Both the position numbers and the translations under genes were made by a program. Below are positions 59,301 through 62,094 of a stretch of 64,000 nucleotides of DNA, one piece after another (position 1 is the stretch's first letter; each line of letters opens with the position of its first letter). A model generated the notes under the pieces. It was given only the letters and a program-made list of their open reading frames with translations. It ran no database searches and was not told the DNA's origin. Location: NCBI GenBank assembly GCA_000165345.1, contig CM000432.1, positions 768,001-832,000 on the forward strand, in the 5' to 3' direction.

Positions 59301-62094
59301 AATTAATTGTTTCTCTATCCCAACCATCTGGGTTCAATCCGATTTCAAATAAGTTTTCAAGACCAGCATTCAAATAAGGGTTTAGTTTACGAGATTTATA
59401 TCGAGCATTTGGCCCCATTCGTTCATAAATATCAGTAATAAACCTATCCAGGTTTTGATCTGATGGAATTTCTGAGAAATACCACTTACTTCCGGGGTAT
59501 TTTTCATCTTCTCTTGCAAGATTATATACTGAACTTGGTATGAACTCATTTAAAACCTGTATTGGTAAAACTAATCCATCGTCGGAATAAATGGCTTCTC
59601 CTACTCTGTCTCTTAGCCATGGATATTTAATTAAAAGCTTCTCATTGAAATCTGGATCTCCATAATTTGCCTCTTCAATTATTCTAAGGGCATCATCTCT
59701 ATCTAAAGACTCTAGCCAAGAATATTTGTCAGCTGATATTCCTTTACCAAAATTACCCCTAGTACGATACTCCATCCAAGAGGGCTTATGATTTAAAGTA
59801 TAAGTTGGCCCTTCGTTACGTCTGGATTGAATATTTTCAAGTACAAAATCATCTAGTTCGTCATAATGGCTAAACCTGGGATGGAATTTAAGGAGTTGTA
59901 ATTCTGGAACTCTGAACTCGCCTTGAAATCTGTCCTCTGGAAGCATATCACCAACCAAAACAAGATGTTCAATATCTTCTGGATATTCTCCGCTAAATAC
60001 TCCCTTATTCCTTAAGTCAGTAAACTTGGGCACAAAGCTGTAGTAAGAATACTCTTCTCCCATTTGATTTTCAGGACTTGTTTCTCTACCCAAAATTCCT
60101 CTAATAGCTTCTTCCTCACCCCATTCTCCAAGAAGTCTAACTTCATCACTCCAGTCTCCATGAAGTTTATCATCATCCCAAAATGTCCCTCTCTCAATTT
60201 CCTCCCTCCATTTTCTTCTCAGTTTTTCTCTTTCTTGAGGTTCAATTTCTTCCCAGCGATAAATACCTTTTGGCAGCTTTAGCATATATTCTAGAGGAAT
60301 ATCACCCTCATTTCTTACAGCTAGTAGAGGCATTTTGTTTGCATCTCTGTATATCAACATCAAGTCTACGGGATCGATTATATCTTCAAAGTCTCCATTT
60401 GGTCTTCGCCCTTTTTTGATATCTCTCAAGGCCCTTTCTCTTAGCCTTAAAATTTTATCTCTTCTATTCGTTGGATATTTTGAAAGAACTCTTTCACCAA
60501 CAGTAATGAGGTATGGATCTCCGTTAATATCTTGAATTAAGTCGTAACCTCTCCTCCTCCTTCTGTTCCTCATCCTGGGTGAATCATTCAGATCATATAC
60601 GTCTCTTCTTTTTCTTCTTCTTGGGCCTGATCTAAATAGACCCAGATCATCGTCAGGATTATCTTCTCTTTGCCTCCTGCCTCTCCTTCTTCGTCCATTA
60701 AGTATTGGCTCTTCTTCTTCATTAAATTGCTCCCCGGGTTCATGCCTTCTTCTACGCTTTATTAGAGTTGGTTTTCTATCTAGAGGTTCTAAGCTTCCTT
60801 TCTTTCTAGATCTCCTTGGACGCCTTCCAGTAAACTTATTTTCTCCATATTCCTCATCAAGTATTCGTTTTGTTCTTGGATGTCTATCGAGCCATTCTTG
60901 CTTTTCGTCATCAGTAAAGATTTCCCACTTTTTTGGAAGCTTGGGTTTTTTCGGGCGTCTTTTAGAGTGTCTCTTGTTATTTCTTTTACCATTTTCATTC
61001 TCACTTACTTCACCTTCACTTGTTTCACTTCCATCTGAATCATTTCCAGTATATTCATATTCTGTTTCGTCAGGATCCCCACCATTTATATATACAGTTT
61101 CCGTTTCTGGAGAACCGTCATCTCCTGCTTCACTAATATATTTTTCTTCAAAATCTGAGTTATTTTCATTTTCACTAGCGTATCTTATACTACTTTCATT
61201 ACCGTTATCATTACCATCTACATATTCATACTCTGTTCCTGGATGATCTTTATAATTCTCACTACCATCTTTATAAATGTAGCTTTGAGGATGATCATCC
61301 CCATTTTCATCCATCATCATATAGCTCACTCCTGGTTCACTATTATCTGCTTCACTTTCCAATTTGTAACTATAATCATTTCCACCTTCAGGATCATCAC
61401 CCATGTATTGGTAACTATAGCTCTCCATGTTTGGTTCTTGCTCACTAATAGCTTCATATCCCATATCAGATGGTCCAAATCCTTCAGAATCTCCCTTATA
61501 TTCATATTCTGTTCCCTCGCTCTGGCCTTCTGAGACACTCAATACCTCGGTCTGATCCTCAGAAGCATCATCACTCAATGCTCCTTTGCCTAAAGCAGGA
61601 TCCTCATCGACAGAATCTTTGAGATTTAGCTTATTATCTTTTAACGGATTCCCATTGAACTTTGTTAGGGGTATTACTGCATCTGGAAGTTTATAATCAG
61701 CTGGTGTCTGAGCAACTGCAGATATCTCCGGAACTTTTTCTGACTCTGAGGGTACCAATAATTCATCATTTGGAATATTTTCAACATTATCATATTCTGA
61801 ACTTGGTTCGTTGTTAATATTCTTCATATTTTTGTTTGCTATATTATATCGTCTCCAATCATCAGTGCCATCATAATATTGTTCTAACAAACTCAAAGTG
61901 TCTTTAACACCTTTATCATAAGTTCTCCCAAGACCTTCTGCTGAGCTTCTTGTTGTAATTCCTGGCCTTGACACTATGGGGTCCCCACCATTTTTATTTG
62001 GACCATTATTACATTCTGCTATTTTTGAAAAGGGTGATAATATAATTAAAAGTAAACTCAATTGAGAGTAGAAACGTCCTATTGCTGTATTCAT
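53305..62094 (-). CDS. Giant secreted, highly charged protein of 2929 aa. It has an acidic Tyr-rich N-terminal repeat region, long Arg/Lys polybasic tracts and a C-terminal domain shared with the 795-aa neighbour.
   Basis: The ORF is single and uninterrupted. The signal peptide is MNTAIGRFYSQLSLLLIILSPFSKIAEC. It repeats [GE]TEYEY(K/V/T)G.D three times. Polybasic runs include RRRRGRRQR, PRRRKRR, RNRRRRRGY and SKRRGSKKRRGRDKSKSRKGKKGKR. The C-terminus reads TCIVGGVRSHFAAQKIYRVALKYLEMSP..KFLIIPLRIGKENLN..PRSIVIPMSFPQLY..VVPMIILPIF. Confidence 0.7.
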   Translation of the reverse strand: MNTAIGRFYSQLSLLLIILSPFSKIAECNNGPNKNGGDPIVSRPGITTRSSAEGLGRTYDKGVKDTLSLLEQYYDGTDDWRRYNIANKNMKNINNEPSSEYDNVENIPNDELLVPSESEKVPEISAVAQTPADYKLPDAVIPLTKFNGNPLKDNKLNLKDSVDEDPALGKGALSDDASEDQTEVLSVSEGQSEGTEYEYKGDSEGFGPSDMGYEAISEQEPNMESYSYQYMGDDPEGGNDYSYKLESEADNSEPGVSYMMMDENGDDHPQSYIYKDGSENYKDHPGTEYEYVDGNDNGNESSIRYASENENNSDFEEKYISEAGDDGSPETETVYINGGDPDETEYEYTGNDSDGSETSEGEVSENENGKRNNKRHSKRRPKKPKLPKKWEIFTDDEKQEWLDRHPRTKRILDEEYGENKFTGRRPRRSRKKGSLEPLDRKPTLIKRRRRHEPGEQFNEEEEPILNGRRRRGRRQREDNPDDDLGLFRSGPRRRKRRDVYDLNDSPRMRNRRRRRGYDLIQDINGDPYLITVGERVLSKYPTNRRDKILRLRERALRDIKKGRRPNGDFEDIIDPVDLMLIYRDANKMPLLAVRNEGDIPLEYMLKLPKGIYRWEEIEPQEREKLRRKWREEIERGTFWDDDKLHGDWSDEVRLLGEWGEEEAIRGILGRETSPENQMGEEYSYYSFVPKFTDLRNKGVFSGEYPEDIEHLVLVGDMLPEDRFQGEFRVPELQLLKFHPRFSHYDELDDFVLENIQSRRNEGPTYTLNHKPSWMEYRTRGNFGKGISADKYSWLESLDRDDALRIIEEANYGDPDFNEKLLIKYPWLRDRVGEAIYSDDGLVLPIQVLNEFIPSSVYNLAREDEKYPGSKWYFSEIPSDQNLDRFITDIYERMGPNARYKSRKLNPYLNAGLENLFEIGLNPDGWDRETINYLRELFRDAENREIELLEELDGNNIYGNGSMHPRGSRRRKHKLRSSRPEMPIWYFGTEEQRDREKRLEFAIESDSTGEIIEGKPSVRKVFLDPTGRNPGGILSLELQDISDDPGYDVEPLGVPEANYFYDDEDDDDLNLEMLGSYPSSRASPLRTKNMYFENIPEGKYSDINTGIYPANYDWRSNKNRKLKHPSFNPIRRYIFNDDDIDIKSPLSISQSDFLQELSGFNERNPYLIGRVTGMNKDHLNRYGRPEKMRRNGRIEMKKRYPKSHKVNEFGQEDPMEIIRDYYDLNESSILDVLDGKGIYRPKKKKVGYGVSDLDYLRRSNDDDWNYMKKLKENNSSKPRSKRSDKPLWYYYDTIGRRWDDSIEDDLIDSSIDLIVKELQSKRKDNKKGILKKGTKSKDSRSLSRKERPRHSSEYDSEDYSINEIEDVKGKGKNKSKRRGSKKRRGRDKSKSRKGKKGKRVTFKLHSGDDEVETSENSSEDSVSDASSSQDESSNLEGESEAPETSKSESESESDEEDEDFEELGPLARKILMAAGYDDDLDPNIPLSIETEILDLIDTGKKGRMKNKLKRGNKSGKEELDDHLSLDKMREANKKIKVDKHDLSEVRRMRRDLNNDSGDLEALKTLIKKLHLNDFIELSDYSSLETSQDSEQMSNELEKSDNESEVSLSEDSQENSKEGDPLGDNNGKSNLKPLKVVRIKKNKDGTPIKTNNTDDSEEVSTSIDNNSSIEASQVEEEEISLSEWDSFINEEIKNLESKPAKSKSGKKKSKTEKGNRKKSQKKKGLEKSKEEKEALLRLGIDPKVIKRMNSLLKDKENGVKNALDYLLDELENNVEDSPESRHESKRSKRRKRKNRKRRQRENASRRPYDLEPVTPAFSRYILKLRDVLGPKEALEELLDNLDIDLSGYEPVQKELRRYITPNVINDIRVLRDKQNGDEKALNKLLNVLKIPNKRSSRRERSKHSKQPNQRAGRALPALLNDEDIKTVNRLLKRNKAPQALEYFLKSTDLDKDLEDNDQGVYRPNKSYSGLNLLPESLSKVTYLMNQGPQGCRDALSEIYDELGIPKQNNLFNGSLDAINPQSRKPLKRNRQRKMVMSPYLDDYESDYSESGDIIGDEFSEFDDFSTFIPREYYQLKDGRRGNAIDPIKRLPFRRDHTLPDTYRSSQAASRLPSPFEDQYSKTQIDHPMFRNFVIPTPRYYKAPEMSQYNRDLRDFVNNRRKAFGMPSIPDYQYWNYEPEITGRSVYEGLDTPTNRRRKQILDRKRKLGNYLDEEHEVSVPLDDENGTGKENSSKSVMMKSFVDDDLPESSEEFMLVQKPEYSEEELYDMGQCAAKDILSNKVKAKNGAETNDNLNIGPEGLQDDSDVFKVEREATREEILSTLVTDPRMEISKKLILREVSDDDDSVINKLNNIVIENPMMDRSNIPKPVETLEKLKEIQNQAPTSKEITNFGYLDPSLSSYDKKLYSDNFVQSLENESIEAIPVSISSQMFEECKDMADQLKMKELGCEKISGDTSESRRRPLDVRRFSKRVSKIKNIYAKSFLKQISFPGEVAKLYIDKFSDLKGWNKAMDKHRWVALPLVSPQSYIPNLGGLNLFQRMVLHQAVKKQKSHSPRRVVILAFSTRSFTEKKLPNSFASMGDFSGKKNALSSVEYSMNVEYNKGMLIIPLIDLALCIKGALQLNNTVTSKSKRTKLGTCIVGGVRSHFAAQKIYRVALKYLEMSPDLSLAKFLIIPLRIGKENLNEQLKLSESGNVDKNFDIQIPEDAISPAVSDLEFSKLQFEMKFENSKQVKERYNNKLSNLSEAIFKLYLMNSRELDIRSLKANGPRSIVIPMSFPQLYIKGYSRAQKLVKKIQNKYKPSLKNRSYRNKLKPGFILLINDSTVNSGANAKSFLNEQIKRIQTFFTNPYSFKNFKSRKYEGPVLEIKGVNSLQTRKFLLDAIARASRQPSVVPMIILPIFVDNNLKTSKSDRKAMDKALKKNIKHSNNI
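57741..57768. repeat. (TCAGAT)4 hexanucleotide repeat encoding (Ser-Glu)n in the 2929-aa protein.
   Basis: Bases tcagattcagattcagattcagat. The protein has SKSESESESDEEDEDFEE at this position. Confidence 0.7.

Follow-up and report, generated by a model that had tools for sequence, protein, structure and literature searches.

Does the N-terminal part of a very large, putatively secreted Cryptosporidium parvum protein, in which an acidic Tyr-rich stretch is followed by a series of Arg tracts, carry arrays of sulfation and cleavage sites, as a first-pass annotation had proposed, or does it have some other role? The protein is encoded in a stretch of 64,000 nucleotides of contig CM000432.1 (the window) by a single-exon open reading frame (ORF) of 2929 amino acids (aa). 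We assign this ORF to cgd4_3450 on chromosome 4 because published cgd4 primers map exactly: the quantitative polymerase chain reaction (qPCR) primers of Mauzy et al. 2012 for that gene (PMC3305300, supplement) lie at 60027 and 60141, within the ORF, and those for cgd4_3300 to cgd4_3440 (PMC3305300 supplement) map in order along the window. The product is identical to C. parvum EAK87781.1 and QOY42090.1 (CPATCC_001694), carries the source names "large low complexity protein with signal peptide" or "signal peptide-containing protein" (the latter at NCBI), and has a computed mass of ~335 kDa once the signal peptide is removed. The region singled out earlier, 59500-62094, corresponds to aa 1-865. 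cgd4_3450 is a real, conserved, uncharacterised and genus-only protein, and no new mechanism is demonstrated for it. The reading that we tentatively prefer is that its N terminus is a disordered module of a genus-specific giant of the secretory pathway, made as invasive stages and their organelles are built, that would act through electrostatic and aromatic contacts and is possibly clipped.

53305..62094, minus strand: cgd4_3450, 2929-aa single-exon ORF, C. parvum chromosome 4

The acidic aromatic-repeat block

60937..61713, minus strand: acidic aromatic-repeat block, aa 128-386 (charge counts, isoelectric point (pI), AlphaFold)
61498..61512, minus strand: TEYEY copy 1, aa 195-199 (Y197 invariant across Cryptosporidium; gastric species have V/A in place of Y199)
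61222..61236, minus strand: TEYEY copy 2, aa 287-291 (C. parvum clade only; elsewhere TEFEY, YEREF or a gap)
61051..61065, minus strand: TEYEY copy 3, aa 344-348 (Y346 invariant; Phe replaces Y348 in C. muris and C. andersoni)

The N-terminal ~350 aa had been described as extremely acidic, and the counts bear this out. Net charge in successive 50-aa windows of aa 51-350 was -2, -6, -9, -13, -11 and -13, and the calculated pI of aa 29-386 was 4.16. The core of this region, aa 128-386, contains 65 D+E versus 22 K+R (net -43) and 20 Tyr (pI 4.06), organised as ~12 degenerate units of the form 'Y-x-(Y/hydrophobic) + acidic G/N/S/D/E spacer'; Tyr makes up 7.9% of the Tyr-rich region versus 3.9% of the rest of the protein. 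Of the specific repeats named at first pass, SYSYQYMGDD and YSYKLESE are present (aa 225-234 and 241-248). TEYEY does occur three times, but the longer motif [GE]TEYEY.G.D is exact in copy 3 only, the nearby G and D of copies 1 and 2 standing in a different register. The repetition exceeds that of composition-preserving shuffles of aa 100-365, among which any 5-mer occurred three times in 8 of 20000 and the seven occurrences of YxY (1.57±1.16 in shuffled sequence) were reached in 5 of 20000. No DNA tandem repeats were found in the acidic block, so the motifs appear to be old and degenerate; the codons of the three TEYEY copies are near-identical, which is uninformative because the genome is AT-rich.

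An AlphaFold2 model built on a six-species alignment gave a predicted local distance difference test score (pLDDT) below 50 at aa 23-380 and 418-535, and disorder is therefore predicted for the acidic Tyr block as well as for the Arg tracts. Across seven species the acidic block varies in length from 259 to 317 aa, with a net charge of -40 to -46, 7-10 aromatic-x-hydrophobic motifs and a roughly constant total of 21-26 Tyr plus Phe. The split between the two aromatics shifts, with 14-15 Tyr and 7-8 Phe in gastric species and 20-21 Tyr and 3-5 Phe in closer relatives. When the 20 C. parvum Tyr were followed through the alignment, 5 were invariant (among them the first Tyr of TEYEY copies 1 and 3), 5 varied only to Phe, and 10 to other, non-aromatic residues. 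This pattern points to selection that keeps the bulk traits of the block (length, a charge of about -43, aromatic number) while exact residues drift. Constant charge and aromatic count, Tyr/Phe interchange and predicted disorder together argue for a module of multivalent contacts rather than an array of specific modifications.

The region invites comparison with the 'sticker-and-spacer' model of the FUS family, in which Tyr and Arg drive phase separation of disordered regions. Like these, the acidic block has regularly spaced aromatics, is predicted disordered, adjoins an Arg-rich neighbour, and conserves aromatic number over aromatic position. Its spacers, however, are strongly acidic where those of the model are polar and uncharged, and its setting would be the lumen of the secretory pathway.

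The same Tyr residues had been put forward as tyrosine O-sulfation sites, which together would form a sulfotyrosine-rich binding surface. Of the 20 acidic-block Tyr, 13 have three or more acidic residues and no more than one basic residue within ±5, a signal peptide is present, and the predicted disorder would leave the region accessible. Tyrosylprotein sulfotransferases (TPSTs) occur, as far as is known, in animals, plants and a few bacteria, and we know of no TPST or 3'-phosphoadenosine-5'-phosphosulfate (PAPS) supply described in apicomplexans. Clusters of Tyr in an acidic, disordered and secreted context are likewise found in the N-terminal extensions of fibromodulin, lumican and osteoadherin; these small leucine-rich proteoglycans, however, need animal Golgi TPSTs, whereas the Tyr of cgd4_3450 are interchangeable with Phe. 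The small leucine-rich proteoglycan family is described as sulfation-prone (PMC7310474). None of the literature matches listed reported tyrosine sulfation, a TPST or PAPS in Cryptosporidium or other Apicomplexa. With 5 of 20 Tyr invariant, and Tyr falling across species as Phe, which is unsulfatable, rises, we consider the sulfation claim unsupported and probably wrong, the sulfotyrosine surface being very unlikely.

The Arg-rich block and candidate cleavage sites

60523..60936, minus strand: Arg-rich block, aa 387-524 (composition, motif count, AlphaFold; disordered at aa 418-535)
60667..60693, minus strand: RRRRGRRQR, aa 468-476 (best-conserved furin-like position; acidic P' side EDNPDDD)
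60544..60624, minus strand: PRRRKRR (aa 491-497) and RNRRRRRGY (aa 509-517) (Arg runs, C. parvum clade only)
57901..57996, minus strand: densest K/R patch, aa 1367-1398, KGKGKNKSKRRGSKKRRGRDKSKSRKGKKGKR (K/R density)
56701..57603, minus strand: K/R patches at aa 1498-1515, 1699-1722 and 1783-1798, with acidic Ser/Glu-rich blocks between them (K/R density)

The block that follows (aa 387-524) has 33 R and 10 K versus 28 D+E, a pI of 10.9, and ten overlapping R-x-[KR]-R motifs. All three polybasic tracts of the first-pass annotation (RRRRGRRQR, PRRRKRR and RNRRRRRGY) are present, together with an additional one, KRRRRH, at aa 446-451. Over the whole protein the R-x-[KR]-R motif occurs 16 times versus 2.92±1.67 in 2000 shuffles (maximum 10), an enrichment of ~5-fold. 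A further KR-rich patch had been placed at about aa 1480-1510, where there is a moderate patch (aa 1498-1515, GKKGRMKNKLKRGNKSGK), but the densest patches lie elsewhere, at aa 1367-1398, 1699-1722 and 1783-1798.

Cleavage at such motifs has a precedent in the same organism. GP60 (gp40/15), which is small and mucin-like, resembles cgd4_3450 in having a signal peptide and an R-x-R-R motif in an unstructured stretch. It differs in being heavily O-glycosylated, glycosylphosphatidylinositol (GPI)-anchored and endowed with a single site, and is cut at RSRR, the deletion of which abolishes processing; the cut is attributed to the subtilisin CpSUB1 (PMC11411101). Because deletion of RSRR stops GP60 cleavage, furin-type protease activity exists in C. 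parvum. On its side, cgd4_3450 is 2929 aa long, has no mucin-like Ser/Thr tracts in the region, and carries 16 motifs that are mostly unconserved.

Conservation separates one position from the rest. Five of the six lineages (C. parvum, C. meleagridis, C. ryanae, C. muris and C. andersoni) have an R-x-[KR]-R motif aligned to aa 471-474, and the sixth, a relative with 65% identity, has KRRGRGHR at the position aligned to aa 468-476; near aa 380 and 430 the motif recurs in some lineages. By comparison, the counterparts of PRRRKRR and RNRRRRRGY in distant species read PRRRHRL / GRRKGGY, ESRPRGG / NKKGRGY and KRNRYKA / KKRPHQ. The basic block has ten R-x-[KR]-R motifs in the C. parvum/C. hominis/C. 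meleagridis lineage, two in C. ryanae and the 65%-identity relative, and three or four in gastric species. Even between C. parvum and C. hominis, which are 97% identical overall, aa 401-500 (60595-60894, minus strand; 90%) and aa 1401-1500 (57595-57894, minus strand; 84%) are the two most divergent windows, and the C. parvum to C. hominis changes in aa 401-500 fall repeatedly in Arg tracts (RTKR to RTKQ, KRRRRH to NRRRRR, PRRRKRR to PRRRRRR). Most Arg runs appear to have expanded recently within the C. parvum clade. The aa 1351-1400 window is gapped by 72% in C. ryanae and 94% in C. muris, so the patch at aa 1367-1398 would be a lineage-specific insertion. The sole invariant later motif, R[MIL]RR at aa 1546-1549, falls within a conserved helical repeat and is probably structural.

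These observations bear on the proposal that cgd4_3450 is a polyprotein precursor that convertases would cut at most or all of its polybasic tracts, the later K/R patches among them, to release many functional fragments. The enrichment of motifs in disordered, accessible sequence, the furin-like activity evident from GP60, and the alternation of conserved blocks with variable charged linkers along the alignment would all suit such a precursor. Since most Arg runs look like recent clade-specific expansions, however, a many-fragment polyprotein is unlikely; the heavily gapped window around aa 1367-1398, the probably structural role of aa 1546-1549, and the poor furin character of K-rich patches such as KSKSGKKKSK also tell against it. 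Convertase cleavage itself survives in reduced form. Motif enrichment, predicted disorder and the GP60 precedent support it, but motif density is lineage-specific and only ~1-3 positions are kept (~aa 380, 430, 471-474), so at most a few cuts are likely. Cleavage at one to three sites, the best of them aa 468-476, is plausible on this pattern of conservation. The peptide ILNGRRRRGRRQREDNPD is named as a candidate CpSUB1 substrate, and a split at aa 468-476 separates a ~51-kDa fragment (pI 4.6) from a ~284-kDa body (pI 8.3), as computed.

The basic tracts might instead be directed at the host, either binding polyanions such as host heparan sulfate or mucin in adhesion or serving as a nuclear localization signal (NLS) in a fragment delivered into the host cell. 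The similarity of KRRRRH, PRRRKRR and KRSKRRKRKNRKRRQR to classical NLS and heparin-binding clusters would favour such a role, as would the predicted secretion of the protein, its expression alongside invasion-stage genes, and the frequency of disordered effectors in apicomplexans. We regard this role as doubtful: the number of tracts and their net charge are poorly conserved (+15 to 0), the protein is very large for export, no localisation evidence was found, and the adjoining block of net charge -43 would compete with polyanion ligands.

N-terminal elements and evidence for secretion

62011..62094, minus strand: signal-peptide-like N terminus, aa 1-28, MNTAIGRFYSQLSLLLIILSPFSKIAEC (hydrophobicity peak, orthologue conservation)
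61843..61974, minus strand: conserved module aa 41-84, RPGITTRxSSxGxGRTYDKGVxDT..LE.YYD....WR (alignment)
61669..61719, minus strand: conserved motif aa 126-142, A[VI]AQTPxxYKxPxxVxP (alignment)
60844..60954, minus strand: short helix-turn-helix aa 381-417, PKLPKKWEIFTDDEKQEWLDRHPRTKRILDEEY, at the junction of the acidic and Arg-rich blocks (AlphaFold)

The protein begins with a basic residue followed by the hydrophobic run LSLLLIILSPF, a pattern kept in all six orthologues, and its N terminus is the second-highest 19-aa hydrophobicity peak of the protein. By the -3/-1 rule, cleavage of the signal peptide is likely after Cys28. The hydrophobicity scan revealed transmembrane-like segments only at the N terminus and in one buried-looking stretch of the C-terminal domain; the C terminus is hydrophilic and without a GPI-anchor signal. 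The earlier description of the protein as secreted is upheld by its conserved signal-peptide-like N terminus, the source annotation, and its location in a cluster of signal-peptide genes, all of which is support of a sequence kind.

Directly after the signal peptide comes the module at aa 41-84, which is better conserved than any other part of the N-terminal third: ~20 of its residues are invariant from C. parvum to C. andersoni. AlphaFold confidence is low for this module; it could be an element of the sorting or prodomain type. A second conserved motif (aa 126-142) has A126, A128, Q129, T130, P131, Y134, K135, P137, V140 and P142 invariant. Beyond the signal peptide, AlphaFold modelled just one stretch of the N-terminal 530 aa with confidence, the helix-turn-helix at aa 381-417 (pLDDT 75-87; helices at 395-404 and 406-415), in which W390 and W401 are invariant. 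A PEXEL/TEXEL-like motif was rejected: no RRL is present, and RILDE at aa 410 is not conserved.

Conceivably the N terminus is not a functional signal peptide and cgd4_3450 is an unsecreted low-complexity protein of nucleolar or chromatin type inside the parasite. Acidic Ser/Glu-rich blocks alternate with Lys/Arg-rich blocks along the chain, as is usual in nucleolar proteins (Nopp140 and nucleolin, for example), and only 7 Cys occur in 2929 aa (0.2%). The position of the hydrophobic run is, however, conserved in all orthologues with a conserved module after it, the gene belongs to a series of six or more adjacent signal-peptide genes that share its expression timing, and NCBI annotates the product as signal peptide-containing; an unsecreted protein is hence very improbable.

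Timing of expression

In the qPCR time course, the cgd4_3450 transcript was zero at 2 and 6 h, peaked at 12 h, and rose a second time at 36 h; cgd4_3430, cgd4_3440 and cgd4_3460 follow a like time course, with the same 12-h peak. By 12 h post-infection the parasite has reached the eight-nuclei stage, at which expression of microneme and rhoptry genes is highest, and the candidate microneme/rhoptry proteins include the neighbours cgd4_3430 and cgd4_3470, the latter "predicted as rhoptry protein" (PMC12604037). On the basis of the 12-h peak and the timing and candidacy of its neighbours, cgd4_3450 appears to be among the genes made for the invasive stage.

This timing bears on a further explanation, that the protein is a Tyr-rich wall precursor whose subtilisin-processed peptides are cross-linked through dityrosine. 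Eimeria GAM56 and GAM82 are Tyr-rich oocyst-wall precursors processed by subtilisin, and cgd4_3450 mirrors them as an apicomplexan secreted protein with a Tyr-rich region (7.9% versus 3.9%) and subtilisin-type sites, although its protease processing is only predicted. It has no detectable homology to GAM56/GAM82, its transcript peaks at 12 h, during asexual merogony rather than in late sexual stages, its Tyr are exchanged with Phe, and aa 1-1200 have no homologue outside Cryptosporidium. We judge such a role to be exceedingly improbable.

A tentative model for the N-terminal module

We propose that cgd4_3450 enters the secretory pathway, being transcribed while invasive stages and their secretory organelles assemble, and that its N-terminal module would have two parts, an acidic block with an aromatic-x-hydrophobic 'sticker' every ~14 residues and the adjoining Arg-rich block. 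The module would act through multivalent electrostatic and aromatic (Tyr/Phe-Arg) contacts, for which the partners could be the protein's own basic blocks, partner cargo or Ca2+. Such contacts would hold a giant, charged cargo compact or neutralised, either in packaging or after release. In keeping with this, charge is strongly segregated over the whole protein (variance of net charge in 50-aa windows 45.7 versus 17.3±2.7 in shuffled sequence, z = 10.6). A subtilisin such as CpSUB1 may then cut at aa 468-476, and perhaps near aa 380 and 430, and the cut at aa 468-476 would free the acidic fragment from the basic body.

Several points weigh against this proposal. The evidence for a role in condensation or packaging is wholly compositional. 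The net charge of the basic block falls from +15 in C. parvum, via +9/+10, to 0 in C. muris and C. andersoni, and the value of 0 in these gastric species weakens the simple idea that the adjoining basic block neutralises the acidic one. The signal peptide was judged by eye and by heuristics, not by a predictor (no SignalP), and alignments of low-complexity sequence are uncertain, so that site-level conservation (of Tyr/Phe and of basic positions) is approximate. In the literature examined, no main text mentioned cgd4_3450 and no localisation, proteomic or processing data for it were found, and the secretome-derived candidate table of PMC12604037 does not contain it.

A more specific version of the multivalent-contact module would make cgd4_3450 a granin-like matrix or scaffold of a secretory organelle, in which alternating acidic and basic disordered blocks, with their Tyr/Phe and Arg stickers, self-condense to pack cargo (perhaps in response to Ca2+ or pH) and a CpSUB1 cut at aa 468-476 switches their state at maturation or release. 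The resemblance to granins (chromogranin A/B, secretogranins) of animal dense-core granules would be one of working only: these are secretory cargo proteins, acidic and for the most part disordered, in which di- or polybasic sites are numerous, and they carry sulfated Tyr and aggregate with Ca2+. There is no sequence relation to granins (Pfam PF01271): cgd4_3450 has no granin match in the Pfam scan at E ≤ 1, has no homologue outside Cryptosporidium in the search with aa 1-1200, lacks the granin motif and disulfide loop, and granins are confined to animals. This version is distinctly unlikely; if true, granin-style cargo packing would have arisen independently of animals, in a parasite-specific family that includes cgd4_3440.

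Taken alone the finding is modest. Cryptosporidium ranks among the leading causes of diarrhoea in children, and the majority of its secreted proteins are genus-specific and uncharacterised; cgd4_3450 is among the largest of these and lies within a co-expressed signal-peptide cluster, two members of which are already microneme/rhoptry candidates. The analysis replaces a vague "low complexity" label with testable statements: selection appears to act on acidic-block charge and aromatic spacing, one basic site, the N-terminal module, and the C-terminal domain common with cgd4_3440, and most Arg runs appear to be recent drift.

Orthologues and the C-terminal domain

53308..54777, minus strand: basic C-terminal domain, aa 2440-2929, pI 10.2 (best-conserved part of the protein)

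Close orthologues are found in C. hominis, C. tyzzeri and C. meleagridis (92-99.7% identity). A HMMER search with aa 1-1200 against 1.84 billion representative proteins returned three matches only, all from Cryptosporidium or a relative (65% identity in that relative, 46% in C. ryanae, and 34% in C. muris, whose cluster includes C. andersoni), and no homologue outside Cryptosporidium. With the C-terminal 698 aa, a word-index protein search gave no match among the best 8000 candidates, and with the C-terminal profile a C. hominis fragment only, again among the best 8000. On the evidence obtained, which is mainly the aa 1-1200 HMMER search, the family seems to be restricted to the genus and yet present throughout it, gastric species included.

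Pfam scanning of the whole protein at E ≤ 1 gave nothing above cut-off, the sole match being DUF7432 (E = 0.043, below its cut-off), and scans of the N-terminal region (aa 1-865) and of the helical repeats gave no family above cut-off. The C-terminal 490 aa are 49-51% identical between C. parvum and gastric species. AlphaFold modelled this domain with a pLDDT of 45.8, and it had no PDB match by Foldseek (E ≤ 0.001) and none by PDB profile searches. About half of it is covered by a domain of ~260-285 residues common with the adjacent gene cgd4_3440 (49710-52097, minus strand; 795 aa, signal peptide), as indicated by blastp (22% identity over 190 aa), hhalign (probability 93.9%, E 1.5e-7), and the common motifs TCIVG.V and KF.I.P. 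This common C-terminal domain, for which neither protein has a Pfam family, suggests that cgd4_3440 and cgd4_3450 are distant paralogues. Among the neighbours, only cgd4_3440 is similar to cgd4_3450.

Six copies of a helix-loop-helix-like motif of ~32 aa lie between aa 1541 and 2003 (window 56086-57474, minus strand) and rank among the better conserved parts of the protein. Their pattern is hydrophobic-xx-hydrophobic-xx-L ... G ... AL-xx-LL-xx-L, as in VIKRMNSLL..NALDYLLDEL and FSRYILKLRDVL..EALEELLDNL. The UBA domain with which UniRef labels the C. hominis orthologue was rejected, there being no UBA family for the repeats at E ≤ 10 or for the whole protein at E ≤ 1.

Neighbouring genes and other features of the window

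Signal-peptide-like N termini occur in at least six or seven consecutive genes (43153-64000, plus L001:1-8858), comprising cgd4_3430, cgd4_3440, cgd4_3450 and then genes of 742, 441, 368 and 507 aa beyond the end of the window. No Pfam domain was found in any gene of this run that was scanned.

The hexamer TGCATG is enriched in the window, with 53 occurrences versus 23.9±5.1 in shuffled sequence and none of 100 shuffles reaching 53. It clusters at 62589-62972, 52695-53057, 42472-42533 and elsewhere; cgd4_3450 and cgd4_3440 each have five copies upstream, and three more lie in the space that separates the divergent pair cgd4_3420 and cgd4_3430. Because TGCATGCA-type AP2 motifs are known in apicomplexans, TGCATG is a candidate cis-regulatory element, and it may be one common to the co-expressed genes.

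Elsewhere in the window, primer mapping identifies a gene for a calcium-dependent protein kinase (CDPK) at 13535-15403 (minus strand) as cgd4_3330. Its best solved-structure match is 3is5_A, a calcium-dependent protein kinase chain (E 5.7e-108) that is not a C. parvum CDPK structure. The first-ATG ORF encodes 622 aa and the kinase domain starts at aa 181, so either cgd4_3330 has a long N-terminal extension or its true start lies downstream.

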